DNA of 64,000 bases. It comes from Sphingomonadales bacterium. Its GTDB lineage: Bacteria > Pseudomonadota > Alphaproteobacteria > Sphingomonadales > Sphingomonadaceae. The DNA is taken from assembly GCA_031408195.1 (NCBI GenBank), contig JANNVL010000082.1:16298-80297 (forward strand). Direction: 5' to 3'. Of the stretch, positions 1-26,140 are shown one piece after another; position 1 is the first letter of the stretch; each line of letters begins with the position of its first letter. The position numbers were made by a program, and so were the translations under genes. The notes under the pieces were generated by a model, which was not told the DNA's origin, did not search any database, and was given only the letters and a program-made list of their open reading frames with translations.

Positions 1-502
1 CGGCCAGTCCCGACCAATTCTGTTCGGCCAGCCCTTTGCAGGTCCCTGCGACGAAACTGACCGCCGACGACCAGTCGCGGTGGGTGAGCGGCAGCATTGC
101 TTCTGCGGCACAACCGAGGGCCGCCGACACGCCAGGGATGACTTCGACGGACAGTCCCGCTGCGCGCACCGCTTCGACTTCTTCGCCGCCGCGCCCGAAA
201 ACGAATGGGTCGCCGCCCTTTAGCCGGACGACAATCGCGCCGGTCTTTGCATGGGCAACGATCAGTGCATTGATCGCGTCCTGCGACAGGGTGTGGCGGT
301 CGCGTTTTTTGGCGACCGAGATGCGTTGGGCATGAGGCGGGACGTGCGCGAATACGCGATCGTCGATCAGACCGTCGTGCACGACGACATCGGCGGATTG
401 CAGCGCCGCAACCGCCTTCAACGTCAGTAATTCGGGGTCGCCCGGACCTGCCCCGACAAGGATGACGCGCCCACGTTGTTCTGGATGGAGGAGATTTGCC
501 AT
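1..502 (-). CDS. cobA: Uroporphyrinogen-III C-methyltransferase (SUMT); 3' end runs off the window
   Basis: Not in the ORF track. Manual minus-strand translation from ATG at 502 gives MANLLHPEQRGRVILVGAGPGDPELLTLKA...VVHDGLID...VVRLKGGDPFVFGRGGEE...VIPGVSAA, the tetrapyrrole methylase motifs. Confidence 0.92.
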   Translation of the reverse strand, partial: MANLLHPEQRGRVILVGAGPGDPELLTLKAVAALQSADVVVHDGLIDDRVFAHVPPHAQRISVAKKRDRHTLSQDAINALIVAHAKTGAIVVRLKGGDPFVFGRGGEEVEAVRAAGLSVEVIPGVSAALGCAAEAMLPLTHRDWSSAVSFVAGTCKGLAEQNWSGLA

Positions 503-571
503 ATTGCGCCTCTGCGCGCGCGGGCTGTGTGCCGCAACATAGCGATACTTGTTACGCGACCAGTGTCGCTT

Positions 572-1984
572 TCAGTCGAGGCGTAGCCCGACGCCAATCG
601 CAGCGCGCGGGTTGTCCTCTTCGGACGACACCACCGGATAGGCGCAATAATCGGCGGCGTAATAGGCACTGGGCCGGTGGTTACCCGACAGGCCGATTCC
701 GCCGAACGGCGCCGACGAAGAGGCGCCGCTGGTCGGTTTGTTCCAGTTGACGATGCCAGCCCGGCTGTTGGCCCAGAACCGGTCGTAAAGCTCGGGACTG
801 CCGCCGATGAGCGAGGCCGACAGGCCGAAGCGGGTGTTGTTGGCCTCGATCAGGGCCGCGTTGAAATCGGGCACGCGGATCATTTGCAGCAATGGGCCGA
901 ACAGCTCGATGTCGGGCCGGTCGCGGACTTCGGTCACGTCGATGATCGCGGGTGACAGGAACGGAAAATCGTCGAGCGGTCGCTCAAGCTGGACGATGGG
1001 GCGGCCGCCCTTCATCAACAGCGCGAGAAAGCTCTCCTGCAATCCGTCGGCAGCTTCGTTGTCGATCACCGGCCCCATAAACGGGGCGGGGGTCGAATGC
1101 GGGTCACCGACGATCAGGCGCGCAATCAACTTGCGGAGCTCGGCGACCAGCGGCTCGTGCATGCCGTCCTTGACGATCAACCGCCGCGCCGCCGTGCAGC
1201 GCTGGCCTGCCGACATGAAAGCCGACTGTGCCACAAGTACGGCGGCGGTATAGGCGTCGGGCGCATCCCACACGATGATCGGGTTATTGCCGCCCATCTC
1301 CAGCGCCAAAATCTTATTGGGCATATCGGCATATTGCCGGTTGAGGATCAGGCCGGTGTGCGCCGAACCGGTGAACAACAGCCCGTCGATGTCTTCGTTT
1401 CCCGCCAGCTGTTTGCCCTCGGCAGGGCCGCCGATGACGACGCGGACCAGATCTTCGGGGATACCGGCGGCATGATAGCATTCGACCAGCTTGATGCCCG
1501 ACAAAGGGGTCTTCTCACTCGGTTTGAACACGATGGCGTTACCCGCAAGCAGGGCAGGAACTATGTGCCCGTTGGCGAGGTGCATCGGGAAATTATACGG
1601 CCCCAGCACGCCCAACACGCCGTGCGGTTTGTGCCGCAGCGCAGTGCGCGCGCCCATCGCGCCGTCGATGCGGCGCTGGGCGGTGCGTTCGCTATAGGCG
1701 TTGACTGAAATCTCGACCTTGGCGATCACCGATTCAACCTCGGTACGCGCTTCCCATAACGGCTTGCCGGTTTCGCGGGCGATGGTGTCGGCCAGATCGT
1801 CGTGGCGGGCGCGCACGACATTGGCGAAACGGTGAAGCGTTTCGGTCCGGAATGTGAGTGACTGCGCCGCCCATTGCGGCCATGCGTCGCGCGCGCGGGC
1901 AACCTCTGCGGCGACGTCGCTTGACATGCCGCGCCACAATTCAGCCCCCGTTGCCGGTTCGATGGAAATCACTTCACCAGCCAT
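572..1984 (-). CDS. astD: Succinylglutamate-semialdehyde dehydrogenase
   Basis: ALDH motifs (LEMGGNNP, GQRCT, ELFGP) and the AstD-type C-terminus VNWNKPTSGASSSAPFGGIGLSGNHRPSAYYAADYCAYP. Confidence 0.88.
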   Translation of the reverse strand: MAGEVISIEPATGAELWRGMSSDVAAEVARARDAWPQWAAQSLTFRTETLHRFANVVRARHDDLADTIARETGKPLWEARTEVESVIAKVEISVNAYSERTAQRRIDGAMGARTALRHKPHGVLGVLGPYNFPMHLANGHIVPALLAGNAIVFKPSEKTPLSGIKLVECYHAAGIPEDLVRVVIGGPAEGKQLAGNEDIDGLLFTGSAHTGLILNRQYADMPNKILALEMGGNNPIIVWDAPDAYTAAVLVAQSAFMSAGQRCTAARRLIVKDGMHEPLVAELRKLIARLIVGDPHSTPAPFMGPVIDNEAADGLQESFLALLMKGGRPIVQLERPLDDFPFLSPAIIDVTEVRDRPDIELFGPLLQMIRVPDFNAALIEANNTRFGLSASLIGGSPELYDRFWANSRAGIVNWNKPTSGASSSAPFGGIGLSGNHRPSAYYAADYCAYPVVSSEEDNPRAAIGVGLRLD

Positions 1985-2024
1985 TAACTCCCCGCTTTAC
2001 ACCCGTATTATGGATTTATGGTTA

Positions 2025-3425
2025 TCATGCAGAAAGCATGTGCGCTTCGCCCATATGGCGGATGGCGGCAAGTTTCGAGTCGAACAAAGTCCAGTCGTCA
2101 TCGGCCGCTATGGATGCCCAGATCGCTTCCACCTCGTCGATGAGCATCGAGCAGGGGCCAGCACCGGACCAATAGTCATGGCCCAGGCCGCCGACCGGCG
2201 CATAGCCCGCCACAGCGGCGCGGAACGCCGCGAACGCATCGATGGAATAACCAGCATCGGGACGCCGCTGACGACCGCCGCGCCAGTCGAAGAAGAATTT
2301 GTCGAGCGGACATTGCGTGGTGACGAGCACAGCTTCCATGGCCTGCACCAGTGCCACATCGCTTCCCCCGCCCTTCGGAACAACGCCGAGCCGCCACAGC
2401 ATCCGGTCGATGATGGCGGCCCGATAGGCAGTACCAAATTGATCGACCGCCGCCGCAAGAGCGTCAGGCTCCGCGATTTCGCTCAGCGCAATCGCCAGCT
2501 GGACAACATCCCAGTGGATCGCTTCGGCTTGTCGCCCGAAAGCATAGAGCCCCGCCGAATCGAAATAGGCGGCGGTGAAGTCCGCATCGAACGTCGGCGC
2601 GAACCGCCACGGGCCGTAATCGAAACTCTCGCCGGTGATGTTGATATTGTCGCTGTTTAGTACGCCATGCACGAAACCTGCCGCCATGAACGATGCGGCC
2701 ATGCGTGTGGTGCGGGTAGCGACATGCCGAAGCAGACGCACGGGGCCGTCGGTGCCCATTTCCTCGCTGAAATAATGCTTCAAACTATAGGCTACGAGAC
2801 GGTCGAGTTCGGCCTTTTGCCCAAGCGTTGCCAGCCGCTGGAAACTGCCGATGCGGATATGGCCGTGGTTGAGGCGGACCAGCACTGCCGCGCGCGTCGG
2901 GGAAGGTTCGTCGCCCCGGTGTAAATGTTCGCCGGTCTCGATCACCGAGAACGTCCGCGATGTTTCGACGCCAAGTGCTTCGAGCATTTCGGTGGCAAGG
3001 ATTTCGCGGACCGCCCCCTTGAGCGTGAGTCGTCCGTCGCCGAAACGGCTGTGCGGCGTCGTGCCCGATCCCTTGGTGCCGAAGTCCATGAGCCGTCCGA
3101 CTTGATCTCGACACTGTGCGAACAGGAAGCCGCGCCCGTCGCCGATATCCGGATTGTACACGCGAAACTGGTGGCCGTGGTAGCGTAACGCGAGCGGCTG
3201 CGGCTGTGCGCCGGGAAGCGGCACGAAGTGGCCGAAGTGATCGATCCATGCCGCATCGGGCAAAACGTCCAGCCCGACCTGCGCGGCGGCGCGGTCGTTG
3301 CGGAACCGCAGCCGGTGTTGTGGGAAATCTGCCGCCGTCACCGGGTCGGCAATAAAGTCCGTAATTTCATCGATCGCCCGGGCCGAAATGAAGGCGGGTG
3401 TGAAAACTTGCGGTGTCGCGGCCAT
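2025..3425 (-). CDS. selO: Protein adenylyltransferase SelO (YdiU family)
   Basis: YHGHQF, KGSGTTPHSRFGDGRLTLKGAVREILATEML, GFVHGVLNSDN and DYGP motifs. Confidence 0.9.
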   Translation of the reverse strand: MAATPQVFTPAFISARAIDEITDFIADPVTAADFPQHRLRFRNDRAAAQVGLDVLPDAAWIDHFGHFVPLPGAQPQPLALRYHGHQFRVYNPDIGDGRGFLFAQCRDQVGRLMDFGTKGSGTTPHSRFGDGRLTLKGAVREILATEMLEALGVETSRTFSVIETGEHLHRGDEPSPTRAAVLVRLNHGHIRIGSFQRLATLGQKAELDRLVAYSLKHYFSEEMGTDGPVRLLRHVATRTTRMAASFMAAGFVHGVLNSDNINITGESFDYGPWRFAPTFDADFTAAYFDSAGLYAFGRQAEAIHWDVVQLAIALSEIAEPDALAAAVDQFGTAYRAAIIDRMLWRLGVVPKGGGSDVALVQAMEAVLVTTQCPLDKFFFDWRGGRQRRPDAGYSIDAFAAFRAAVAGYAPVGGLGHDYWSGAGPCSMLIDEVEAIWASIAADDDWTLFDSKLAAIRHMGEAHMLSA

Positions 3426-3462
3426 GCGGCGATATGGACGCGGGCGCAGGGAGCGGCAAGTC

Positions 3463-4329
3463 TTGGCTTTTACGGACGGATATTGGTGGTCGAACGACGG
3501 GTTGCGGCTGCACTACCGCGATTATGCGGGGCAAAGTGCTGCCGCCGCAACGCGTCCGCCGATCCTGTGCTTGCCCGGCCTGACCCGTAATGCCCGCGAT
3601 TTCGAGACGGTGGCTCAGCGGCTGTCGGCGGAGTGGCGCGTAATTGCGGTCGATCTGCGCGGGCGGGGCGAGAGCGCCTATGCCAAGGACGCGATGACCT
3701 ATGTCCCGCTGACCTATGTGCAGGATATCGAGCGGTTACTGACCGATCTGAAGATCGACCGGTTCGTGTCGTTTGGGACATCGCTAGGCGGAATCGTGAC
3801 GATGCTGCTCGCCGCGACTGGCCATGCGCGGCTGGCGGGCGCGGTGCTCAACGATGTCGGGCCAGTGATCGAGGCAGCGGGACTCGACCGCATTCGCGGC
3901 TATGTCGGGCGGGGCGGGGCGTATCCGACTTGGGTCCATGCAGCGCGCGGCATTGCAGAGACTAATGCGGCAGTGTTTCCGCGCTATAACCTGACCGACT
4001 GGCTGGCCATGGCGAAGCGGACCTACCGGCTGTCGTCGAACGGACGGATCGTGCAAGATTACGACAAGAAAATTGCCGAGCCGTTCCGCTTGCCGGGCGG
4101 CGAGGCGGGAATTGATCTGTGGCCTGCATTCGACGCGCTGGCCGACGTGCCGACGCTGATCGTGCGGGGCGGGCTGTCCGACTTGCTTGCGCCCGCAACC
4201 GTCACTGAAATGACCGGGCGGTTGCGTCGGGCGACAGCGGTGACTGTTGCCGACGTTGGCCATGCTCCGGTGCTCGACGAGTCCGAGGCAGCTGCTGCCA
4301 TCGACGCGTTGCTGGCCAAAATCGCCTGA
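3463..4329 (+). CDS. Alpha/beta-fold hydrolase
   Basis: CLPGLTRN, nucleophile elbow GTSLG, C-terminal GHAP. Likely start is TTG at 3463 with GGGAG upstream; the track start at 3298 overlaps selO. Confidence 0.85.
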   Translation: MAFTDGYWWSNDGLRLHYRDYAGQSAAAATRPPILCLPGLTRNARDFETVAQRLSAEWRVIAVDLRGRGESAYAKDAMTYVPLTYVQDIERLLTDLKIDRFVSFGTSLGGIVTMLLAATGHARLAGAVLNDVGPVIEAAGLDRIRGYVGRGGAYPTWVHAARGIAETNAAVFPRYNLTDWLAMAKRTYRLSSNGRIVQDYDKKIAEPFRLPGGEAGIDLWPAFDALADVPTLIVRGGLSDLLAPATVTEMTGRLRRATAVTVADVGHAPVLDESEAAAAIDALLAKIA

Positions 4330-5465
4330 TGCCGGTCAACGTCCTGCATTGCCATTCGACCTTTTCGCTCGGGGGCAAGGAAGCCCGCGCGGTGGCATTG
4401 ATGAACGCGTTCGGCGACCGGGCGCGACATACGATTATCAGTTCGGTGCCGGGCGCGCTCGACGCACGCGCTGCGATTGCGGCGGGGATCGATGCGCGTT
4501 TCCCCGATAATGTCCCGTCGCTGACCGGACGTCCCTCGGTGGCGCGGTACCGCGACATTGCCGACTATATGCGCGGGTTCGATCTGGTGCTGACCTATAA
4601 CTGGGGCGCGATGGACGCGGTGATGGCGCGGCGGATGTTTGGCAAATCACTGCCGCCGCTGGTTCATCACGAGGATGGCTTCAACGCCGACGAGGCGGTC
4701 CGCCTGAAACCCGAGCGCACCCTGATGCGGCGGCTTGCGTTTCCGGCGGCGTCGGCCGTGGTCGTGCCGTCTGGGACGCTCGAAGACATCGCGCTGAAGA
4801 CGTGGAAGCAGCCGCTATCGCGCATCCACCGCATCCCCAACGGCATCCAGACCGCGCGCTATGCGGTAAAACCCAAGCCCAACGCCATTCCGGGGTTACG
4901 CAAAAAGGCGGGCGAGATCGTCATCGGCACAGTTGCCGGTCTGCGTCCGGTCAAGAATTTGCCCCGCCTTGTCGAGGCGGCGCTAATGATCCCGGGCACG
5001 CGGCTCGTCATTATCGGCGAGGGGCCGGAGAAGGACGCGATTGCCGCGAAGGCGCGCGAGATGGGCGTGTTCCAGCGGCTGGTGATGCCGGGCTTCCTGC
5101 CCGACCCGCACCGCTACATCGGCCTGTTCGATATCTTCGCGCTGTCGTCGGACAGCGAGCAGTTCCCGATTGCACTCGTCGAGGCGATGGCGGCGGGACT
5201 GCCGGTCGCCACCACCCATGTTGGCGATGTCGCGGTCATCCTGCCGCCCGAACAATTGCCGCTGGTCACCGAGTGCGACGAATATGCGCTGGCGGCGGCG
5301 CTGCGCCAGCTTGTCGCCGACAAAACGCTGCGCGCCAAGCTCGGGGCGGCAAATCAGGCGCTGGCGACAGCCGCCTATGACGAAACGGCGATGGTCGCTT
5401 CCTACGCCAGGCTCTACGACAGCGCGCTCGGCAATACCGTGCATTTTGCATCCGGCACGCTATAA
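4329..5465 (+). CDS. GT4-family (GT-B fold) glycosyltransferase
   Basis: GGKE N-terminal motif, KNLPRL, SSDSEQFPIALVEAMAAG. TGATG overlap with the upstream hydrolase. Confidence 0.88.
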   Translation: MPVNVLHCHSTFSLGGKEARAVALMNAFGDRARHTIISSVPGALDARAAIAAGIDARFPDNVPSLTGRPSVARYRDIADYMRGFDLVLTYNWGAMDAVMARRMFGKSLPPLVHHEDGFNADEAVRLKPERTLMRRLAFPAASAVVVPSGTLEDIALKTWKQPLSRIHRIPNGIQTARYAVKPKPNAIPGLRKKAGEIVIGTVAGLRPVKNLPRLVEAALMIPGTRLVIIGEGPEKDAIAAKAREMGVFQRLVMPGFLPDPHRYIGLFDIFALSSDSEQFPIALVEAMAAGLPVATTHVGDVAVILPPEQLPLVTECDEYALAAALRQLVADKTLRAKLGAANQALATAAYDETAMVASYARLYDSALGNTVHFASGTL

Positions 5466-5482
5466 CCCCGTATCTAAGGGGT

Positions 5483-6901
5483 ATGGAGATCACCAACTTG
5501 TTCAAGGGTATATCGCCGATCACCTATCGGGGCCGCGAAGTCTGGCCACTGATCGAGGGCGGCAAGGGCGTTGCGGCCACCAATCATGCCAGCGCGGGTG
5601 CCTGGGCAGCTGCGGGCGGCATCGGCACGGTCAGTGCAGTCAACGCCGACAGCTACGACCCGACCGGCAAGATCATTCCGCAAGTCTATGCGGCGCGGAC
5701 ACGGACCGAGCGGCATCAGGAACTTATCGCCTATGCCATCGAGGGCGCGGTCGAACAGGTGAAGCGTGCCTATGACATCGCGTCAGGCAAGGGCGCGATC
5801 AACATCAATGTCCTTTGGGAAATGGGCGGCGCGCAGACGATTTTACACGGGGTGCTTGAACGCACCAAGGGGCTGGTGTCGGGCGTCACTTGCGGTGCCG
5901 GAATGCCTTATAAGCTTAGCGAGATCAGCGCGTCTTACGGGGTAAGCTACCTGCCTATCATCAGTTCAGCGCGTGCATTCCGTGCGCTTTGGAAGCGGGC
6001 CTATTCGAAGGCCGCCGATTATCTGTCGGCGGTGGTGTACGAAGACCCATGGCTCGCGGGCGGCCACAATGGCCTGTCGAATGCCGAAAATCCGCGCGTT
6101 CCCGAGCCGCCTTATCCGCGGGTCAAGGCGCTGCGCGAGACGATGCGCGAGGGCGGCATTCCAGACTCGACACCAATCGTGATGGCGGGCGGCGTCTGGC
6201 ATTTGCGCGACTGGTCCGACTGGATCGACAATCCCGAACTCGGCAGCATCGCGTTTCAGTTCGGCACACGCCCGCTACTGACGCAGGAAAGCCCGATCCC
6301 CCAGGGATGGAAGGACATCCTGACCAAGATCGAAGACGGCGACGTCCTGCTCCACAAATTCTCGCCGACCGGGTTCTACTCATCGGCGATCCGCAACCCG
6401 TTCCTTCGCAATCTCGAAGCGCGCAGCGAACGCCAGATCGCGTTTTCCGGCGAGCAGGCGGGGGATCATACCCACCAGCTCGATGTCGGTGTGAAGGGCA
6501 AGCATTTCTGGGTGACGCGCGGCGATCTGCTGCGCGCCCGCGAATGGTATGGGCTGGGCTATACCGACGCCCTGAAAACGCCCGACAACACTGTTGTGTT
6601 CGTGACTCCGGCGGAAAAAGCAACGATCCGCAAGGACCAGACCGATTGTATGGGGTGCCTGTCGCACTGCGCCTTTTCATCATGGAAGGACCATGACGAC
6701 TGGACAACCGGCTATCTCGCCGATCCGCGTAGCTTCTGCATCCAGAAGACATTGCAGGACGTGGTTCATGGCGGGCCGCTTGACGACAATCTCGTCTTTG
6801 CCGGACATGGCGCGTATAATTTCAAGCGAGACCCGTTCTACTCGAACGGTTTCGTGCCGACCGTCAAACAGCTGGTGGACCGCATCCGGACGGGGGATTA
6901 A
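5483..6901 (+). CDS. Nitronate monooxygenase / FabK-FabX-like flavin oxidoreductase with C-terminal Cys cluster
   Basis: PLIEGGKGV, VTCGAG, VYEDPWLAGGHNG, FQFGTR, and CMGCLSHC...FCIQKTL. Confidence 0.8.
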   Translation: MEITNLFKGISPITYRGREVWPLIEGGKGVAATNHASAGAWAAAGGIGTVSAVNADSYDPTGKIIPQVYAARTRTERHQELIAYAIEGAVEQVKRAYDIASGKGAININVLWEMGGAQTILHGVLERTKGLVSGVTCGAGMPYKLSEISASYGVSYLPIISSARAFRALWKRAYSKAADYLSAVVYEDPWLAGGHNGLSNAENPRVPEPPYPRVKALRETMREGGIPDSTPIVMAGGVWHLRDWSDWIDNPELGSIAFQFGTRPLLTQESPIPQGWKDILTKIEDGDVLLHKFSPTGFYSSAIRNPFLRNLEARSERQIAFSGEQAGDHTHQLDVGVKGKHFWVTRGDLLRAREWYGLGYTDALKTPDNTVVFVTPAEKATIRKDQTDCMGCLSHCAFSSWKDHDDWTTGYLADPRSFCIQKTLQDVVHGGPLDDNLVFAGHGAYNFKRDPFYSNGFVPTVKQLVDRIRTGD

Positions 6902-8133
6902 TCCCCGCGCGTCATCCGCATCGGGGCGACGACTGAAATGGTGAGTGCGGCCAATACTGTCGCAACCGCTGCCCAAAGCATGACGGCGAGCACGGCAATG
7001 GCCTGAGCGGCGATTTGCGTCACGACACCGGTACCCTCGTCGAAATCGGGGCCACCAAGAGCTGGGAGCACGAACAGCGGGAACAGCACCGCTCCGGCCA
7101 TCGCGGGCGCGCCGTGCAGGGTGAAGGCACCTGCTGCACTGCCGAGCCGTGTCCGGCGGACGAGTAACCCTGCCAGCACCGATACCAGCGCGCCGATGGC
7201 ACCCAGCGCCATTGCGCCGCCGGCCCCGACAAATCCCGCTCCGGCAGTGACGGCAGCAAGGCCGACGACTGCATTGTTGGCGATGCCATAGACCGACACG
7301 GCACCGCTTTGGCCACGTTCGATCATCATGCCGGTGACGATAGCAGCACTGGCCGCGAGATGCGCGTTGAGGATCGCGGTTGCGGCGTCGTCACTGCCGC
7401 CGAGTGCCGCTGCGCCGATAAACGCCAGAAACCCGACCCAGATCATCGCTGCGCCCGCAACGGCAAATCGCGAGTCATGCTGCACATCGCCCGGCACTGT
7501 GGCACGCAACAGTAAAGCAACCACGAGAGATGCAACGCCCGCTGCAATCTGGATCGGCATGGCTCCTGCAAAATCGATCGTACCGAGATCGCCCAGCCAG
7601 CCCGGCCATACCCAGCGGGCCAGCGGCACATAAGCGATCAGCAGCCACAGCCCGGAAAACGGCACCAGCCATGCCGGACGCGCTTTTTCACCGACCGAGG
7701 CACACAGAATGCCAACCGCGAAAAGCGCAGCGACCATTTCAAACACCGCGTAAATGGACTCGGAAATCGTCGCGCCATCGACAAGCTCGGACATATTGCC
7801 GAGCATCGCATTGCCGACGCCGCCGAGATACGGGCTGCCCGCACCAAAGGCGAGGCTGTAACCGATCCCGGCGAACAGCAATGACGCGACAGCAATGCCG
7901 CCGAACAGCGCGAAACCCGTCGGTCCGGCGCGTCCGCGACCATAGAATAACGCTAGCCCGGGCAGAATGGCTACGAGAGCGAGAATGGAGCTGGCCATCA
8001 CCCAAGCGCTGTCGCCGCTATCGGCGACGATCATCGGTTGCGCGAGCGCAGGCGCTGCCGTCAGCGCGATACCCGTTGTCAATACCGCCCTAATCGTCCG
8101 CATCGCAGCTGCACTCCCCGTTTGCATCGCCAC
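6898..8133 (-). CDS. Ammonium transporter (Amt) family protein, degenerate
   Basis: DSGDSAWV, PGLALFYG, GYSLAFG, DFAG and LHG match the AmtB scaffold; several pore residues are substituted (see findings). Confidence 0.85.
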   Translation of the reverse strand: MAMQTGSAAAMRTIRAVLTTGIALTAAPALAQPMIVADSGDSAWVMASSILALVAILPGLALFYGRGRAGPTGFALFGGIAVASLLFAGIGYSLAFGAGSPYLGGVGNAMLGNMSELVDGATISESIYAVFEMVAALFAVGILCASVGEKARPAWLVPFSGLWLLIAYVPLARWVWPGWLGDLGTIDFAGAMPIQIAAGVASLVVALLLRATVPGDVQHDSRFAVAGAAMIWVGFLAFIGAAALGGSDDAATAILNAHLAASAAIVTGMMIERGQSGAVSVYGIANNAVVGLAAVTAGAGFVGAGGAMALGAIGALVSVLAGLLVRRTRLGSAAGAFTLHGAPAMAGAVLFPLFVLPALGGPDFDEGTGVVTQIAAQAIAVLAVMLWAAVATVLAALTISVVAPMRMTRGD

Positions 8134-16147: not shown

Positions 16148-18499
16148 TTGCCCCCTGTGGCTGCAAAGCGGACTCGCCGGATGAGGCGCGTCTCGCTCCG
16201 CGCCCTGTGGTCACGCTTCCGCGCCGCATCGCGGGTACGGATCATGACCTATGCGCTGCTGGCATCGGTGTTGTGCGGAGTCACTGGCTTCCTCGAACCG
16301 CTCGACGATTTTGCGCGGAATATACGATACTCGTTGCGTCATGTGTCCGCTGATGGGTCAATCGTGGTTGTTTCCATTGACCAGAAAAGTGCCCGCGAAC
16401 TTGGTGGCAAGTATCCGTGGCCGCGGACCGTTGATGCCCAACTGATCGAACGGTTAAAATCGGCAGGCGCGAAAAAAATTGTCTTTGATCGTTCGTTCGC
16501 TGATGTCGATACTGCGGCAAATGATACGTCTTTGAACCGCACGCTAGATCGTTATCGCGGCGATATCTATTTTGGTTCCGGGATTTTGACGGTCAGTCGT
16601 GATGTGATCACCTCGACGATGATGCCTGCAGCCGTCTATCGACCTCATGTCGAAATCGGCACGTTGATGCAGTGGACCAACCCGATCGGGCAGCTGGCAG
16701 AATTGTACGTCGAAAACCCCAATGCGGATGCTCGCTATCCCGGGTTGTCTGTCATATTATCGGGGGCACCCGCGCCACGATCAGAACGGTTTCGTCCTGA
16801 TTTTGCCATCCGGAGTTCGACGTTTCCGACGTATTCGGTTTCCGATGTTGTATTAAATCGGGTTGGCCCGGACGAACTGGCTGGTCGAGATGTTATCATC
16901 GGCCTTGGTGAAATGGCATTCGGGGACAGCCATTACTTGCCCGGACAAGGTCGTATGCAAGGCGTTTACGCCCACGCCATCGGCGCGCAAACACTAAAGC
17001 GCGGAACACCGGTCGAACTCGGATGGTTCTATCCCATGTTGGCCGTTGGCATCGCGGCGTTCGCATTGCTTCGCACCCGTCGCGTTGCGTCTAGTGGCGC
17101 AACGGTAATGGGAGCGGGTGTTGCTCTGGCGTTCGTCCCGCTAGCTCTTGATGGGTACCTGCTGTCGGTTGACATTGCCCCTGCAACGCTGTTTTTTAGT
17201 ATCGTGTTGGTGCAGCACGCCCGATTGACTTTTGGCTGGCGCAAAAGTCGCACGCATGAGCATTCCGGGCTACCGAATGCCATTGCGCTGCGGGAAGTAA
17301 AGTCAGGTGCGGCACACGCGTTGATAGCAGCAAGGATAGACAATCACGCGGCGATCACCGCCAGCTTTGCCAAGGATGTCGAGCCTCTGATTGCCGCAGA
17401 AATTGTGGGGCGCCTGAAAGTCGGTGACGGCGGCATCAACGTCTATCAGGGCGATGAGGGTGTCTATTATCTGTTGTCGCCGATCACCGATACCATGCTT
17501 CTGTTCGAGCATCTCGACGGCCTTCATGCGCTGTTTTCTCAGCCAATTCGCGTTGGTGACCGCCAGGTCGATGTCGCGATTACATTTGGCATCGATAATA
17601 ATCCCGCTCGCGCAATGTCGAGCCGGGTTGGTAGCGCATTGCTGAGTGCTGAAGACGCGCGGCGGCAAGGTCTTCGCTGGAAACTCTATGAAGAGGCCCG
17701 CGGTGCCGATGCGGCGTGGGAACTCGCACTTGGCGGTGAAATCGATCGCGGGTTGGCGGCGGACGAATTCTGGCTAGCCTACCAGCCAAAGCTCGATCTC
17801 CGCACCGACACGATTGTCGGGGCGGAAGTTCTCGTGCGCTGGTCGCATCCCCAGCGCGGTGCAATCAGTCCGGTAGATTTCATCGCTGCTGCCGAACGCG
17901 ACCACAGGATCGAACGGCTAACCCGGTTCGTTTTCGAGCGTGCCGTGCAGGACGCAACAGTTATGGGGCGCACGGCTCAACTGTCGCTTGCCCTCAACGT
18001 CTCGGTCCCCGTGCTGCGCCGACCGGAATTTGCCGGCTATGTTATCGATCTCGTGACGCGACACGGGCTGGCCCCGCAACAGTTCACGATCGAAATTACC
18101 GAATCGGTGTTCTTTTCGGTCGATGACGATGTCGTTGTCGACAATCTGCAACGGTTGGGGGCGGCAGGTTTCGGCATTTCAATCGACGATTTCGGCACAG
18201 GCTATTCGACATTCGAATCGGTCCAGCGCATTCCCGCGACCGAAGTGAAGATCGACCAGACTTTCGTGAAAGCGCTGGGCGAACGCTCCGCCGACCGGAT
18301 CATTGTCGAATCGATCATCAAAATGGCGCAAGGACTGCGCCGTACCGTTGTCGCCGAAGGCGTCGAGGATGCCGCGACACTGGCCGAACTCAGGACGCTC
18401 GGGTGCGATCAAGTGCAGGGTTACTTCATCAGCCGACCGCAGCCGTTCGGCAGCTTCATCGATTTTGTTGCCCAGCGTTCGCAACGAAACGCAGCTTGA
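16148..18499 (+). CDS. CHASE2 sensor + degenerate GGDEF + EAL c-di-GMP phosphodiesterase; start uncertain (16148/16181/16244)
   Basis: Periplasmic CHASE2-like segment (YPWPR, IVFD, VIIG) then TM helices. GGDEF position reads QGDEG. EAL domain has AYQPK, AEVLVRW, DDFGTGYS, EVKIDQ, EGVE, QGYFISRP. Confidence 0.85.
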   Translation: MPPVAAKRTRRMRRVSLRALWSRFRAASRVRIMTYALLASVLCGVTGFLEPLDDFARNIRYSLRHVSADGSIVVVSIDQKSARELGGKYPWPRTVDAQLIERLKSAGAKKIVFDRSFADVDTAANDTSLNRTLDRYRGDIYFGSGILTVSRDVITSTMMPAAVYRPHVEIGTLMQWTNPIGQLAELYVENPNADARYPGLSVILSGAPAPRSERFRPDFAIRSSTFPTYSVSDVVLNRVGPDELAGRDVIIGLGEMAFGDSHYLPGQGRMQGVYAHAIGAQTLKRGTPVELGWFYPMLAVGIAAFALLRTRRVASSGATVMGAGVALAFVPLALDGYLLSVDIAPATLFFSIVLVQHARLTFGWRKSRTHEHSGLPNAIALREVKSGAAHALIAARIDNHAAITASFAKDVEPLIAAEIVGRLKVGDGGINVYQGDEGVYYLLSPITDTMLLFEHLDGLHALFSQPIRVGDRQVDVAITFGIDNNPARAMSSRVGSALLSAEDARRQGLRWKLYEEARGADAAWELALGGEIDRGLAADEFWLAYQPKLDLRTDTIVGAEVLVRWSHPQRGAISPVDFIAAAERDHRIERLTRFVFERAVQDATVMGRTAQLSLALNVSVPVLRRPEFAGYVIDLVTRHGLAPQQFTIEITESVFFSVDDDVVVDNLQRLGAAGFGISIDDFGTGYSTFESVQRIPATEVKIDQTFVKALGERSADRIIVESIIKMAQGLRRTVVAEGVEDAATLAELRTLGCDQVQGYFISRPQPFGSFIDFVAQRSQRNAA

Positions 18500-21416: not shown

Positions 21417-23198
21417 TTACACCCTCAGCCGCGCGACCATCTGGCGCAGCAGTGCCAGCATGGTCTGCGGAAAGGCAGTCAGGAACCGCTCGAACCGCTC
21501 GTAGCTGAGGGTCAACACGTTGGTTTCGGCGTCGGCGCGCAGTGACGCCGTGCGGTGCAGACCAGCGAAGAGTCCGTATTCGCCCGACAGTGCACCCGGA
21601 CCAAGCGACGCTACGGTCGCGCCTGCTGTATCAACCACGGTGAGGGAGCCGATTTCGACGAGGTAGACATGGTCCGCCGCGTCGCCCGCGCGGCAGAGCC
21701 AGTCGTTGGCCGCAACATGCTGCGGCTCGAACATCGTGGCGAGCAAGGCCAATTCGGTCGCGGGCACGTCGGCGAAGACGGGGTTCTCTACCAGCAGCGC
21801 CACGCGCGCCGCGATCGTCTTGGCGGGTAATTCGGCGATGCACAGATTGAAAAACCGGGTCGCGCGGGCAAGTTGTGCGCGCCAGCGGCGGTTCTCTGTG
21901 AAATTGCGCGGCGGCAGGATGCTGGCGTCGCCGGTCAGCCGGGCCGCTTCGCGAAGGCCCGAGAGATAGGCACCGTGCGCGGTTCCCCAATGCATTTCGC
22001 TACTTGCTTCGCCCGCGAACAACAGCGTGGCGCCGACCGGTGCCGCGAGTGCCGCCCGGTCTTCGGGCGTCGAGCCGATGGCTGCGTAACTATAGGCACC
22101 GAACGCGAAAGGATCGCTCGACCAACCGGTTCGGTGCAGGGCGACCGGCGCCGGACAATCACGCCCAAGCGCGCGGGCAATGGCATCCCGCGCAAAGGCA
22201 ATGGCCGCTGCATCGTCCATCGCTTCTACGGCAACGCCGGCACGGCCTCCGATCAGCACGGTCAGCCGCGCCGCACCACCGACGGGCAGGTCGCTAACCA
22301 CGAAGCAGGGTGTTGCACTGTCGCCGCCGCCCTCGACACCGAAACAATAAGGGCCGGCGGGCCAGAACGGCGCAGCAAAATCAAGCGCGACTTTGGCGAG
22401 CGTGCCGACCCCGAGCCGGGCAATCGCCACGGTCTTTGCCTCGGGAAGCGGCGGATCAAAGGCGATCTGTTCCCGTTTCAGCACACCGAGCGGGATCGTC
22501 ACGATCGCGGCGGCAGCAGTGTGGATGCCGCGCGTCGTCATGACCGTGATACCGTCGACATCGTGCTTGATCGCAACCACGCTCTCGCCGGTGAGGATGT
22601 TGAGTCCTTCGGCCAGCACTTCGGCAAAGCGCGAGAACCCGCCGCGCACGACGCTGTCGCCATAGCCATAGACCTCGAACCCTGCGTCCCAATAGCGCGC
22701 TGACATCTGCGCGGGATCGCACGCGCAATTGTCACGAACGAGCGCGTGTAGGTGCCAGCAGGCGTGTGCCCGATCCGCAAGTGACAGGCCAAGTTCGGTC
22801 ATCGCTTGTTCGGCGACATCGGCGATCGAGACGTCGTCACCGTCCTGACTTCTCAACTTGTCGATCCGGTCGGCAACATGGTCAGCAGCAAGGATGCTAT
22901 CGTCGCGGGCGAAGCCGTCGGGGAAGGCGAGGCGCTCCCAGGAACCGGTATAGGTGCTGTCGCCGCCGACAAAGACCAGCGGCAGTTCGTGGCGGTGGGC
23001 AAGCGAGGTAAGCGGATTGCCCTCGGTCTCGTGAATCCAGTGCGCGCCCAAGTCGATGCCATCGATACTGTGCACCCGCCCGCCGATGCGGTCGCGCCCT
23101 TCGATGATGCGGACACTGCGCCCGGCATCGGTCAGCGCGCGGGCAGCAGCAAGGCCCGCTAGACCTGCGCCTATGACAAGGACATCAACGGGTTTCAA
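21417..23198 (-). CDS. Flavin-dependent amine oxidase (MAO/PAO/LSD1 fold) fused to a C-terminal cyclic-nucleotide-binding domain
   Basis: IGAGLAGLAAA, EGRDRIGGR, DLGAHWIH, FAGEA...GTAHGAYLSGLREA, then a cNMP domain with GEYGLFAGLHRTASLRA. TTG start overlaps the upstream TGA. Confidence 0.85.
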   Translation of the reverse strand: MKPVDVLVIGAGLAGLAAARALTDAGRSVRIIEGRDRIGGRVHSIDGIDLGAHWIHETEGNPLTSLAHRHELPLVFVGGDSTYTGSWERLAFPDGFARDDSILAADHVADRIDKLRSQDGDDVSIADVAEQAMTELGLSLADRAHACWHLHALVRDNCACDPAQMSARYWDAGFEVYGYGDSVVRGGFSRFAEVLAEGLNILTGESVVAIKHDVDGITVMTTRGIHTAAAAIVTIPLGVLKREQIAFDPPLPEAKTVAIARLGVGTLAKVALDFAAPFWPAGPYCFGVEGGGDSATPCFVVSDLPVGGAARLTVLIGGRAGVAVEAMDDAAAIAFARDAIARALGRDCPAPVALHRTGWSSDPFAFGAYSYAAIGSTPEDRAALAAPVGATLLFAGEASSEMHWGTAHGAYLSGLREAARLTGDASILPPRNFTENRRWRAQLARATRFFNLCIAELPAKTIAARVALLVENPVFADVPATELALLATMFEPQHVAANDWLCRAGDAADHVYLVEIGSLTVVDTAGATVASLGPGALSGEYGLFAGLHRTASLRADAETNVLTLSYERFERFLTAFPQTMLALLRQMVARLRV

Positions 23199-23629
23199 CG
23201 TGCCGCCCGCCCTAGGCGTTCGAAAGCCGTCACCGCGATCGTGTAGAACACAGCGTCAGCCACGACCTTTCCGACGATAACGCCCAGCGCCGGACCCAGT
23301 AGCCAAACGGCGAGCCACGTTGTGCCCGGCCGAACGATCAGGAAATCGACCAGTTCGGCGGCACCGAATTCGGCAAGCAAGTTCCGCAGCATCCGCAATA
23401 ATTTGGCAGGGCTGCGGGGCGCGGGCAGCGCAGAATAGTCGCGCCCGCCGACAACGCCGTAGAACCCGATGTTCTCGCCGAACGCAGCGCCATAGGCGGC
23501 AAGTGCCGGGCCACCGCCGGCCAGCGTGACAACGTAATAGCCGGCGTAGCTGCCCAGCGTGCCCGCCAATTCGGCCAGCCCATAGCGCCGCACCCAGCTA
23601 TACCATCGTGCCTGTCGCCACCTGTGCAT
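23195..23629 (-). CDS. Hypothetical 144-aa integral membrane protein (GtrA-like topology possible)
   Basis: The last 144 codons of the 980-aa shadow ORF, from ATG 23629 ([10 protein letters not shown]...[14 protein letters not shown]), lie outside lon, are hydrophobic and are coupled to the oxidase by TTGA. Confidence 0.65.
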
Positions 23630-23708
23630 CCGGGCAAACTCCCTTCGCTCGGATGCATTAGGGAGAATTCGGCCATGCGATGCAAGTTTGGCATTTCTAC
23701 GCTGTATG

Positions 23709-23736
23709 TTGCAGGGCCGTCTCCATCCCCCCATAT
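23709..23736 (+). promoter_or_regulatory. RpoH (sigma32)-type promoter candidate for lon
   Basis: TTG at 23709-23711 and CCCCATAT at 23729-23736, ending 7 nt before the lon ATG. Confidence 0.45.
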
Positions 23737-23743
23737 GTGGCCC

Positions 23744-26140
23744 ATGAGCGAAATCTTCCCCGTCCTCCCACTGCGCGACATCGTCGTGTTTCCGCAGATG
23801 ATCGTCCCTCTGTTCGTCGGCCGCGACAAGTCGGTGTCGGCACTCGAAGCCGCGATGGCGGCCGACAAGGAGATTTTCCTGGTCGCGCAACTCGACCCGG
23901 CGGAGGACGATCCCGACCGCGACGATCTTTACGATCTTGGCGTGGTCGCCAGTGTCGTGCAGTTGCTGAAACTGCCCGACGGCACCGTTCGTGTGCTCGT
24001 CGAGGGTAAACGGCGCGCCAAGCTCGTCGAGTTGATGGGCACCGATGGCCATTTGAGCGCGACGATTGCCGAGGTCGGCGATCTGGAAGCGACAGGCGAC
24101 GAAGTCACCGCGCTGATGCGGTCGGTCGTCGATCAGTTCGATAACTACGCCAAGCTCAACAAGAAGCTGCCGGCCGAAACCGCCGTACAGCTTGCCGATT
24201 TCGAGGAGCCGGGGCGGCTTGCCGATGCGGTTGCGGCCAATATTTCGGTCAAGGTCGCCGACAAGCAAGCGCTGCTTGCCGAGGCCGATCCCGCCAAGCG
24301 GCTGGAGATGGTGTTCGCCTTCATGGAGGGCGAGCTCGGCGTGCTGCAGGTCGAGAAGAAAATCCGGGGGCGCGTGAAACGCCAGATGGAGAAGACCCAG
24401 CGCGAATATTACCTCAACGAGCAATTGAAGGCGATCCAGCGCGAGCTGGGCAACGACGGCGAGGAAGGCGACGGCAACGAGATTGCCGAACTGACCCACA
24501 AGATCGCCAATCTGAAACTGTCGAAGGAAGCGCGCACCAAGGCCACGGCGGAGCTTAAGAAGCTCAAGACCATGGCACCGATGTCTGCCGAGGCGACGGT
24601 GGTCCGCAATTATCTCGACGTGTTGCTGGGTCTGCCGTGGGGCAAGAAGTCGAAGCTGAAAAAGGATCTGGTCGCGGCACAGGCGGTCCTCGACGACGAT
24701 CATTATGCGCTCGACAAGGTCAAGGACCGGATCATCGAATATCTCGCGGTGCAGTCGCGCACCGGCAAGCTGAAGGGGCCGATCCTGTGTCTCGTCGGCC
24801 CGCCGGGCGTCGGCAAGACCTCGCTGGGCAAGAGCATTGCCAAGGCGACGGGGCGCGAATTCATCCGCCAGTCGCTGGGCGGCGTGCGCGACGAGGCCGA
24901 AATTCGCGGCCACCGGCGCACCTATATTGGCTCGCTGCCGGGCAAGATCGTCACCAACCTGAAAAAGGCTGGAACCAGCAACCCGCTGTTCCTGCTCGAC
25001 GAAATCGACAAGCTGGGCCAGGATTTCCGCGGCGATCCGGCCTCGGCTTTGCTCGAGGTGCTCGACCCCGAACAGAACGGCAAGTTCCAGGACCATTACC
25101 TGGAGGTCGATATCGACCTGTCGGACGTGATGTTCGTGACGACCGCGAACACGCTCAACCTGCCGCAGCCGCTGCTCGACCGGATGGAGATCATCCGGCT
25201 GGAGGGCTATACCGAGGACGAGAAGGTCGAGATCGCCAAGCGCCACCTGATCGAAAAGCAGATCGAGGCGCACGGGTTGAAGGGTGCGGAATTCGTTCTG
25301 ACCGACGAGGGTCTGCGCTCGCTGATCCAGCACTATACGCGCGAAGCTGGTGTCCGCACACTTGAGCGCGAGATCGCCAAGCTGGCGCGCAAGGTGTTGC
25401 GCCAGATACTGGAAAAGAAAGTCACCGGCGTCACGATCACCGCCGACAATCTTCACGAGTTTGCGGGCGTGCGTAAGTTCACGCACGGGCTGGGCGAAGA
25501 AGAAAACCAGATCGGCGCCGTCACCGGCCTTGCCTGGACCGAGGTCGGCGGCGAATTGCTGACGATCGAGGCGGTGACGGTGCAGGGCAAGGGCGCGGTG
25601 CGCTCTACCGGCAAGCTCGGCGACGTGATGGGTGAATCGATCCAGACCGCGCTCAGCTATGTGAAGGCGCGCGCGCCGTCGTACGGCATCAAGCCGAGCT
25701 TGTTCGCGCGCAAGGATTTGCACATCCATTTGCCCGAAGGCGCGGTGCCGAAGGACGGCCCGTCGGCGGGCGTCGGCATGGTCACCGCGATGGTGTCGAC
25801 GCTCACCGGCACGCCCGTACGCCGCGACATTGCAATGACGGGTGAAGTGACCTTGCGGGGACGGGTACTGCCCATCGGCGGTCTCAAGGAGAAACTGCTC
25901 GCGGCGCTGCGCGGGGGCATCACCACGGTGCTGATCCCGCACGAGAACGAGAAGGATTTGGTCGAAATCCCCGCGAACATCCGCGAGGGATTGAAGATCA
26001 TTCCTGTCCGCCATGTCGATGAAGTGCTCGCGCTGGCGCTGACCGAGCCGTTGGTGGCGATCGAATGGACCGAGGCCGACGAGCTTGCCGCCCAGCCACC
26101 GGCCGCAGCTGCCCTGTCCGAGGAAACAGTCCGGCATTGA
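23744..26140 (+). CDS. lon: ATP-dependent protease La
   Basis: [43 protein letters not shown]. Start ATG 23744. Confidence 0.98.

Follow-up and report, generated by a model that had tools for sequence, protein, structure and literature searches.

To our knowledge, direct switching by a fused cyclic-nucleotide-binding (cNMP) domain is known for few enzymes beyond kinases and mycobacterial Pat. Pat (Rv0998 / MSMEG_5458) is a cAMP-regulated protein lysine acetyltransferase that unites a cNMP domain and an enzyme in one polypeptide, and cAMP relieves its autoinhibition. Likewise, we know of no bacterial polyamine-type oxidase under second-messenger control. A census of cNMP domains (Kannan et al. 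2007, PMC2246266) holds, as judged by a term search, a single family linked to a redox enzyme, namely 'Bact_Pyrredox', and the words 'oxidase' and 'amine' are absent from its main text. Here we describe a gene from a 64,000-nucleotide stretch of Sphingomonadales DNA (contig JANNVL010000082.1; hereafter the window), derived from a freshwater-sediment metagenome, in which a complete flavin-dependent amine oxidase is joined to a complete cNMP domain. The fusion gene is intact, conserved and real in the DNA, and with the gene preceding it, which encodes a small and probably membrane-embedded protein (hereafter the partner), it constitutes a two-gene, translationally coupled operon. We propose, with a probability of roughly one half, that the operon specifies a cytoplasmic polyamine-type oxidase switched by a cyclic nucleotide, together with a membrane partner that handles cationic amines. 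The fusion gene and its parts are as follows:

21417..23198, minus strand: oxidase-cNMP fusion gene, 593 amino acids (aa), with a TTG start at 23198-23196 and a stop at 21419-21417, from the open reading frame (ORF) list and its translation.
21924..23198, minus strand: flavin adenine dinucleotide (FAD) amine-oxidase domain of the PAO/LSD type, residues 1-425, from Pfam PF01593 and from sequence and fold matches.
21831..21911, minus strand: Arg-rich linker helix, residues 430-456, from invariant columns in the 48- and 84-sequence alignments and a helix in the AlphaFold2 (AF2) model.
21420..21788, minus strand: cNMP domain, residues 471-593, from Pfam PF00027, matches to cNMP domains and predicted secondary structure.
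21543..21584, minus strand: phosphate-binding cassette, G539-E540-Y-G-L-F-A-G-L-H-R549-T550-A551-S552, from conservation and the comparison of clades.

Pfam profiles detected both halves of the 593-aa protein: Amino_oxidase (PF01593) matches residues 13-421 with E 8.8e-66 and 223.4 bits (cutoff 19.8), and cNMP_binding (PF00027) matches residues 493-573 with E 5e-15 and 55.7 bits (cutoff 27.5). A homolog search of 5.8 billion proteins returned 1327 matches among 8000 scored candidates, and the best 120 homologs are all full-length (571-662 aa, 44-72% identity) and all contain both PF01593 and PF00027. The initial annotation had raised the frequency of this domain pair as a question and had allowed that the fusion might stem from a frameshift or from misassembly; the presence of the pair in 120 of the 120 best homologs speaks against the latter. 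Furthermore, the fusion gene and its upstream neighbor are spanned with 0 gaps by independent assemblies of two other runs, in contigs of 2499 bp (X2) and 2581 bp (X3) that depart from the window over both genes by a few substitutions only. The full-length homologs and the gap-free independent contigs across the junction together rule out a frameshift or chimera at this point. Both runs show A>C at 23010 and A>G at 23294, implying that closely related strains co-occur in the sediment samples. The AF2 model of the fusion protein was obtained with a predicted local distance difference test score (pLDDT) of 90 and a predicted template-modeling score (pTM) of 0.80. Given that the protein begins directly at the FAD-binding beta-alpha-beta fold, it has no signal peptide and the enzyme is predicted to be cytoplasmic. 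A scan for promoter and terminator consensus sequences between 21200 and 23900 returned no sites.

The initial annotation had described a complete PAO/LSD-type oxidase, an Arg/Phe-rich linker and an intact cNMP domain with a GE...RTA cassette, and each of these parts was recovered. In the oxidase half nearly the entire PF01593 profile is matched (positions 1-442 of 443), and both the catalytic lysine and the pocket motif are present. The dinucleotide fold carries the signature G10-A-G12-L-A-G15 (GAGLAG, residues 10-15), whose three glycines are each found in 83 of 84 family members, and a C-terminal FAD-contact motif is seen at F394-A-G-E-A-S (394-399), with the FAD motifs aligning to those of LSD2. 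K269, in the segment 'GTLAKVAL', aligns with the lysine of 'GIIEKIAL' in LSD2 and is kept in 82 of the 84 members; we take this to be the lysine position at flavin N5, equivalent to K661 of LSD1 and K300 of maize PAO. The pocket motif, GAHWIHETEGNP at residues 51-62, is the window version of a G-A-H-W-I-H-G-T-(E/D)-G-N-P pattern that is nearly invariant across the family (H56 in 82/84), and which corresponds to 'GATWIHGSHGNP' of human spermine oxidase (SMOX), unlike the 'GAQIVNGCINNP' found at this position in LSD2.

A departure from this pattern was noted at codon 57 (23028-23030), which specifies Glu in W-I-H-E-T-E-G-N-P, the residue being Gly in 82 of the 84 family members, in SMOX and in the LSDs. 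We rejected a sequencing error as its source, given that Glu57 is common to the window protein and its three nearest homologs (71-72% identity), and that the comparison with the X2 and X3 contigs lists no variant at this codon. Its presence in all three nearest homologs points to a selected trait of this lineage, which may alter substrate preference.

Among solved proteins the closest by sequence are LSD2 (3e-44), LSD1 (1e-42) and SMOX (4e-41), followed by PAOX (4e-35) and maize PAO (3e-26), with putrescine oxidase and MAO being far weaker matches (~1e-20). Foldseek searches with the AF2 model agreed with this ranking, placing LSD2, LSD1, maize PAO and SMOX at the top with E-values of 1e-36 to 1e-31 (2.6e-36 at 30% identity for the leading LSD match), and the matches in the PDB cover the oxidase part at most (TM-score 0.65 over the query). 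The lead of LSD2 and LSD1 in both rankings is what a bacterial LSD-like demethylase, acting on methyl-lysine in proteins under cNMP control, would produce, and yet we regard such an enzyme as improbable on several grounds. The margin of the LSDs over SMOX is small, and Pfam detects no SWIRM, Tower or zinc-finger module in the protein, whose oxidase domain of ~425 aa is free of insertions in both the alignment and the AF2 model and is of polyamine-oxidase size. Moreover, the WIH..GNP pocket is of the SMOX/PAOX form, LSD2 having 'QIVNGCINNP' instead, and the other genomic neighbors of the partner are small-molecule amine-forming decarboxylases (see below). A protein substrate appears unlikely for the fusion oxidase, and we read its oxidase half as a polyamine-oxidase-like small-molecule amine oxidase.

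The linker that follows reads N-F-T-E-N-R-R-W-R-A-Q-L-A-R-A-T-R-F-F-N-L at residues 432-452, within a helical segment (430-456) that opens with P-R and for which the AF2 model predicts a long helix at 437-456. Its arginines are conserved across both major clades of the family, with R437 present in 83 and R445 and R448 in all of the 84 sequences, so that the linker is conserved on par with the active site. Conserved arginines of this kind would be expected of an allosteric relay or of a docking surface.

The cNMP domain is complete in the AF2 model, with two helices (459-470 and 480-489) ahead of the strands (491 to 565) and two more helices (566-575 and 577-592) after them, mostly at pLDDT values of 76-95; these supply the N-terminal helices, the beta-barrel, the cassette, and the C-terminal hinge and lid helices. 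The cassette lies in the context S-G-E-Y-G-L-F-A-G-L-H-R-T-A-S-L (residues 538-553), and in 48 full-length homologs of 45-71% identity G539, E540 and R549 are invariant, with A551 conserved in at least 90%. The CRP model covers only its own positions 26-130 of 214, with the fusion protein stopping at the lid helix, and the C-terminal helix-turn-helix that is the hallmark of CRP/FNR proteins does not follow the cNMP domain. In comparisons with known cNMP domains, the regulatory subunit of PKA (3e-11) and PKG (2.5e-9) scored similarly to MloK1, HCN and CNG (range 3e-11 to 1e-7). The earlier proposal that the threonine after the cassette arginine favors cGMP did not withstand this comparison, as the scores of PKA, PKG, MloK1, HCN and CNG are about equal, and the cNMP-domain families of bacterial and protozoan channels have R-T-A as their consensus cassette as well (Kannan et al. 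2007, PMC2246266). Accordingly cAMP and cGMP are not discriminated at this site by sequence alone.

A maximum-likelihood tree of 81 sequences resolved two large and deep clades, which for the most part follow phylum boundaries. Clade A, with 30 sequences and a support of 98, includes the window protein, with L002 as its nearest relative, and has T or S at position 550, with all classical contacts being invariant or nearly so. Clade B (50 of the 81 sequences, support 100) comprises actinomycetes along with nested sequences from Sorangium and Ardenticatenaceae, and its cassette takes the form G-(H/G/S/A/T)-(Y/H)-D-(L/M)-F-F-x-A-R-T-T, which retains the arginine, has one of His, Gly, Ser, Ala and Thr instead of the ribose-contacting glutamate, and has a loop shortened by one residue relative to clade A. 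With the glutamate lost, classical cNMP binding may not extend to all members of the family, and the ligand itself may differ between them.

The same variation would fit a domain of the cNMP fold that senses a ligand other than a 3',5'-cyclic nucleotide, or that serves only to dimerize the protein or to dock the partner, in which case the oxidase would be regulated, but not by cAMP or cGMP. Domains of this fold in the CRP/FNR superfamily bind heme, 2-oxoglutarate, chlorophenols and other ligands; the same cNMP subtype occurs fused to the partner (L121 and P0264, described below), such that partner docking could be its main job; and a cyclase rarely adjoins the oxidase (2 of 84 loci). We nevertheless consider this explanation unlikely for the window protein, since the invariance or near-invariance in clade A of the contacts G539, E540, R549, T/S550 and A551 is hard to account for without the classical ligand, and since class III cyclases do stand beside the partner (L102, L128/L129) and the oxidase (L012, L052) in certain loci. 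The clade A protein of the window thus remains a good candidate for a cNMP binder as judged from its cassette.

In a one-genome-per-species prokaryotic collection, 120 stretches encode a relative of the fusion, and the 80 of these that were listed span about eight phyla. They include Sphingomonadales, Hyphomicrobiales, Zavarzinia, Gemmatimonadota, Myxococcota, Acidobacteriota, Binatota, Chloroflexota and actinomycetes, with Pseudonocardiaceae, Micromonosporaceae and Nocardiaceae (Lentzea, Saccharothrix, Umezawaea, Catellatospora, Nocardia) being the most numerous among those listed. Automatic pipelines have given homologs names such as 'monoamine oxidase/CRP-like cAMP-binding protein' (JGI) and 'Putrescine oxidase' (Tsuneonella dongtanensis). 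The architecture had been called unfamiliar in the initial annotation, which is correct as regards the literature, where a full-text search turned up no paper describing an amine oxidase-cNMP fusion (an S. erythraea paper mentions both terms, but for different genes), and not as regards the databases, where the family is large and already labeled automatically.

Within the tree, the sequences of Sorangium cellulosum So ce26 (L041) and of an Ardenticatenaceae metagenome-assembled genome (MAG; L045) are nested inside clade B with a support of 97, which suggests their horizontal transfer out of actinomycetes. A long-branched Zavarzinia sequence (L084) falls beside clade B and yet has a cassette of the clade A type, for which reason its placement is uncertain. 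A further sequence, from a MAG labeled Akkermansia muciniphila (L010), groups with those of Hyphomicrobiales, and its contig is probably mis-binned. New architectures for the linker-cNMP module were sought among matches of 205-468 aa in a search of 1.84 billion proteins, and were rejected in nearly all cases as contig-end fragments of the oxidase fusion; one match of 314 aa (P0153) has an internal gap, and the sole addition was P0264, a second partner-cNMP fusion.

The first gene of the operon is the following:

23195..23629, minus strand: partner gene, 144 aa, encoding a four-helix, probably four-pass membrane protein, from sequence, AF2 and hydropathy.

Its TGA stop overlaps the TTG start of the oxidase gene (TTGA). 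It corresponds to the last 144 codons, and the sole real part, of a 980-aa minus-strand ORF (23195-26137) that is otherwise spurious, being an antisense frame of lon (23735-26140, plus strand). The initial annotation had named this upstream gene for use in a heterologous test, and it proved important in its own right as a conserved neighbor: 16 of 86 oxidase loci have an adjacent homolog of it, in three different arrangements. In the first of these it lies upstream, with the same 4-bp overlap in Tsuneonella and in the genome of L002; further loci of sphingomonad type and of Gemmatimonadota also have it upstream in the same orientation. In the second, seen in Hyphomicrobiaceae, it lies downstream on the same strand with an overlap, and in the third (L011, L012) downstream on the opposite strand. 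On the tree, adjacency is seen in only two sub-clades of clade A, a degree of clustering that no label shuffle reached in 500 trials. Clustering of all ORFs from 84 oxidase loci revealed no other neighbor conserved across phyla, the remainder being synteny within the genus Lentzea.

Searches with the partner found nothing significant in Pfam (E<=10) or PADLOC, and no significant fold in the PDB by Foldseek (best E 3.2). The AF2 model is a four-helix bundle with a pLDDT of 93.6 and a pTM of 0.85. Residues conserved without exception, or nearly so, are R15, E20, E52, Y57, E87, F88, G89, E92, D95, R100, P101, K121, D125, F128 and Y129; acidic and aromatic side chains within hydrophobic helices are typical of binding sites for cations and polyamines. 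Basic residues gather at the N-terminus, in the central loop and at the C-terminus, a pattern consistent with four passes through the membrane and with cytoplasmic N- and C-termini, and membrane insertion of the partner is likely on these features. In one metagenomic relative (L005) the place of the membrane partner is taken by a 96-aa thioredoxin-like 2Fe-2S ferredoxin (PF01257), whose gene (5714-6004, plus strand) overlaps the start of the oxidase-cNMP homolog (6001-7827; 46% identity). This hints that some family members might pass electrons to a ferredoxin and not to O2.

The company of the partner outside the oxidase operons was surveyed by a metagenome scan with a 7-sequence alignment, which recovered at least 227 relatives; 80 loci were examined, 39 of them with at least 700 bp on both sides. 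The oxidase-cNMP fusion stands beside the partner in 12 of the 80 loci, and an amine oxidase without a cNMP domain in one (L166). Decarboxylases dependent on pyridoxal phosphate, of family PF02784, were found in 6 loci, with one fused in frame to the partner (L167). A PF01276 Orn/Lys/Arg decarboxylase gene diverges at 81 bp from the partner gene in 11 loci, Zn-ribbon class III cyclases adjoin it in 3 (L102, L128, L129), and the fusion family's own cNMP subtype occurs in 2, joined to the partner in L121 and encoded by the following ORF in L109. The fused cNMP domain of L121 reads 'LSLSYEKFRRFLLAFPE', as against 'LTLSYERFERFLTAFPQ' in the window protein, and P0264 (see above) is a further partner-cNMP fusion, preserved as a fragment. 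Partner homologs also lie directly 5' of a PF02784 enzyme in Microbacterium aureliae (4-bp overlap) and in a Saccharimonadales genome (2-nt gap), such that this link is seen in 8 lineages (the 6 metagenome loci and these two genomes), with partners only 30-69% identical to one another and the decarboxylase always immediately downstream of, or fused to, the partner. The PF01276 link was counted in 1 independent lineage, and those to cyclases and to the cNMP domain in 2 each.

In the in-frame fusions the partner is followed by the decarboxylase in L167 (3920-6157, plus strand) and by the cNMP domain in L121 (2166-3191, plus strand). Both are joined to the C-terminal end of the partner, as would be expected if this end is cytoplasmic and the partner physically interacts with the proteins concerned. 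The PF02784 enzymes are LysA-like, scoring 174-204 bits against a LysA cutoff of 297.9, and that they are bona fide ornithine or arginine decarboxylases was not confirmed. The PF01276 enzyme is AdiA-like, at 921 bits against a cutoff of 1167 for the arginine decarboxylase model. The substrates of both groups would be basic or diamino acids. The PF01276 arrangement is represented by L125 (1596-3929, minus strand) and ten related loci, all of one freshwater lineage, in which the AdiA-like gene is divergent from the partner gene. BBP2 porin genes were observed downstream in L152, of this same lineage, and in L121, which lies outside it.

This range of associates raises a broader possibility, namely that the four-helix protein is the core of an unrecognized module for cationic amines, a family of mini-transporters or channels that recruits interchangeable enzymes and is gated by cyclic nucleotides. 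We advance this tentatively, as conceivable though less than probable. Under it, the enzymes recruited to the cytoplasmic face might, again only conceivably, be either a PAO-type oxidase or decarboxylases of two folds. Similarly, a single cNMP subtype could perhaps do the gating, whether fused to the oxidase, fused to the partner, or encoded separately, a suggestion we hold no more firmly. Were this correct, the oxidase-cNMP fusion would be one version of a cNMP-controlled device for polyamine homeostasis present across many phyla.

Returning to the operon of the window, a second-messenger-switched oxidase appears the most economical reading, because a complete oxidase is combined with a complete cNMP domain whose cassette is near-invariant. 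In the mechanism that we envisage, the partner gene is the first of two, and the second encodes a cytoplasmic FAD amine oxidase whose activity would be set by its C-terminal cNMP domain. In the nucleotide-free state the cNMP domain and the invariant Arg-rich linker helix would keep the oxidase at low activity. Binding of cAMP or cGMP through G539, E540, R549 and T550 would then shift the hinge, the lid helices and the linker, upon which the oxidase would act on a cationic amine, secondary or primary, yielding an aminoaldehyde together with a shorter amine and hydrogen peroxide (H2O2). Polyamines would be the likeliest substrates, among them spermidine, spermine and acetylated or related compounds of this class. 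The partner might supply or remove the amine as a small transporter or channel, or might tether the enzyme at the membrane. The direction of regulation, that is activation by relief of autoinhibition, is a guess made by analogy with cNMP-enzyme fusions such as Pat.

Several observations weigh against this proposal. LSD2, a protein-lysine demethylase, is the best structural match, marginally ahead of the polyamine oxidases, such that the class of substrate is not fixed, and the lineage of the window has Glu57 in place of the Gly of 82 of its 84 relatives. Clade B, which makes up ~60% of the sampled genomes, is without the cassette glutamate. The partner is not adjacent in 70 of the 86 oxidase loci, and it is only moderately hydrophobic, its helix cores having Kyte-Doolittle values of 0.9-1.7. 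The PF02784 enzymes near it fall below the LysA cutoff, so that the link to polyamines which they offer is suggestive and not proven. Finally, as the initial annotation had also remarked, the window is without a cyclase: an ad hoc class III cyclase hidden Markov model detected nothing in it at E<=10.

Across the homologous loci a class III cyclase was found near the oxidase in 2 of 84 (L012 and L052). In L012, a Hyphomicrobium MAG, a large Zn-ribbon class III cyclase gene (~1-3609, minus strand) is divergent from the oxidase-cNMP gene (4001-5812, plus strand), and the partner gene (5843-6523, minus strand) is convergent downstream. Among the loci examined, this one is the most complete candidate for a set of signal maker, sensor-enzyme and membrane partner. 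In the window, the genes flanking the operon encode CHASE2-EAL, an alpha/beta hydrolase, an M2 peptidase, Lon and HU, and are of a housekeeping nature. The CHASE2-EAL protein (16148-18499, plus strand), a sensor of the cyclic di-GMP phosphodiesterase type encoded ~3 kb from the oxidase gene, belongs to a different second-messenger system, and the related loci show no link between it and the oxidase.

These neighborhoods also bear on the analogy with Pycsar immunity drawn in the initial annotation, by which a cNMP triggered by phage infection would activate the oxidase, and toxic H2O2 and aminoaldehyde or the depletion of polyamines would bring about abortive infection. The combination of a cNMP domain with an effector does follow the logic of Pycsar, and PADLOC gave weak matches (E 1e-9 to 7e-6) to the cNMP parts of Pycsar models; these are generic cNMP-domain matches limited to residues 479-592, no better than the match to PKA, and the partner is unmatched. 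The effector half is an amine oxidase, with no TIR or transmembrane effector in the fusion protein, and no PycC cyclase stands beside the fusion gene in the window. The scarcity of class III cyclases near the 84 loci points the same way, as do neighbors that are housekeeping genes, differ between genomes, and include no defense genes among those annotated. The family is moreover old, with its two deep clades being mostly coherent by phylum. A Pycsar-like defense role is not supported by these observations and we consider it extremely improbable.

If the preferred reading of a cNMP-switched polyamine-type oxidase is true, cAMP or cGMP signaling would be tied to polyamine turnover and to the local production of H2O2 and aminoaldehyde in sphingomonads, Hyphomicrobiales, Gemmatimonadota, myxobacteria and many antibiotic-producing actinomycetes. 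A first functional handle would be gained as well on a family of small membrane proteins that has neither a Pfam model nor a structural relative and that is found time and again with amine-forming decarboxylases and cyclases. As the fusion family is large and compact, with one or two genes, and its enzymatic part is soluble, the hypothesis is directly testable.

The comparison with described systems delimits what is distinctive in this locus. SMOX, PAOX and maize PAO (Foldseek E ~1e-32 for the last) share with the window protein the FAD amine-oxidase fold and its size, the active-site lysine and the G-A-x-W-I-H-G-x-x-G-N-P motif, but they are without a regulatory domain or a membrane partner and have Gly where the window lineage has Glu57. 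LSD1/KDM1A and LSD2/KDM1B are the best matches in sequence and structure, though over the oxidase part only, and differ in their SWIRM, Tower and zinc-finger modules, which are absent from the window protein with its SMOX-type pocket motif. Pat resembles it in overall plan, and the NCBIfam Pat model matches residues 474-591 of the window protein (E 1.7e-8); however, Pat has a GNAT catalytic domain, an N-terminal and not a C-terminal cNMP domain, and no membrane partner. Bact_Pyrredox is likewise a bacterial flavoprotein-type oxidoreductase with cNMP domains, but these are in tandem on a pyridine nucleotide-disulphide oxidoreductase, with the cassette GEMGLISGRRRGATVRA (PMC2246266), whereas in the window protein one cNMP domain, whose cassette is GEYGLF...RTA, is attached to an Amino_oxidase domain. 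Pycsar effectors share the pairing of a cNMP domain with an effector and weak model matches to the cNMP part, from which the window locus differs in lacking an adjacent PycC, a TIR or transmembrane effector and a defense-island context. In AdiA-AdiC, CadA-CadB and SpeF-PotE the gene of a membrane protein stands beside that of a basic-amino-acid decarboxylase, as is seen with the partner, and it is with these decarboxylase-antiporter pairs that a role of the partner as a putative transporter may be compared; antiporters of the APC family, however, have 12 transmembrane segments, against the four helices in 144 aa, without a Pfam or PDB match, of the partner. Set beside these systems, the domain pair as such is already present in annotation pipelines, and the novelty lies in a candidate cNMP-regulated enzyme with a previously undescribed catalytic half, while the membrane-protein hub may prove more novel than the oxidase fusion itself.

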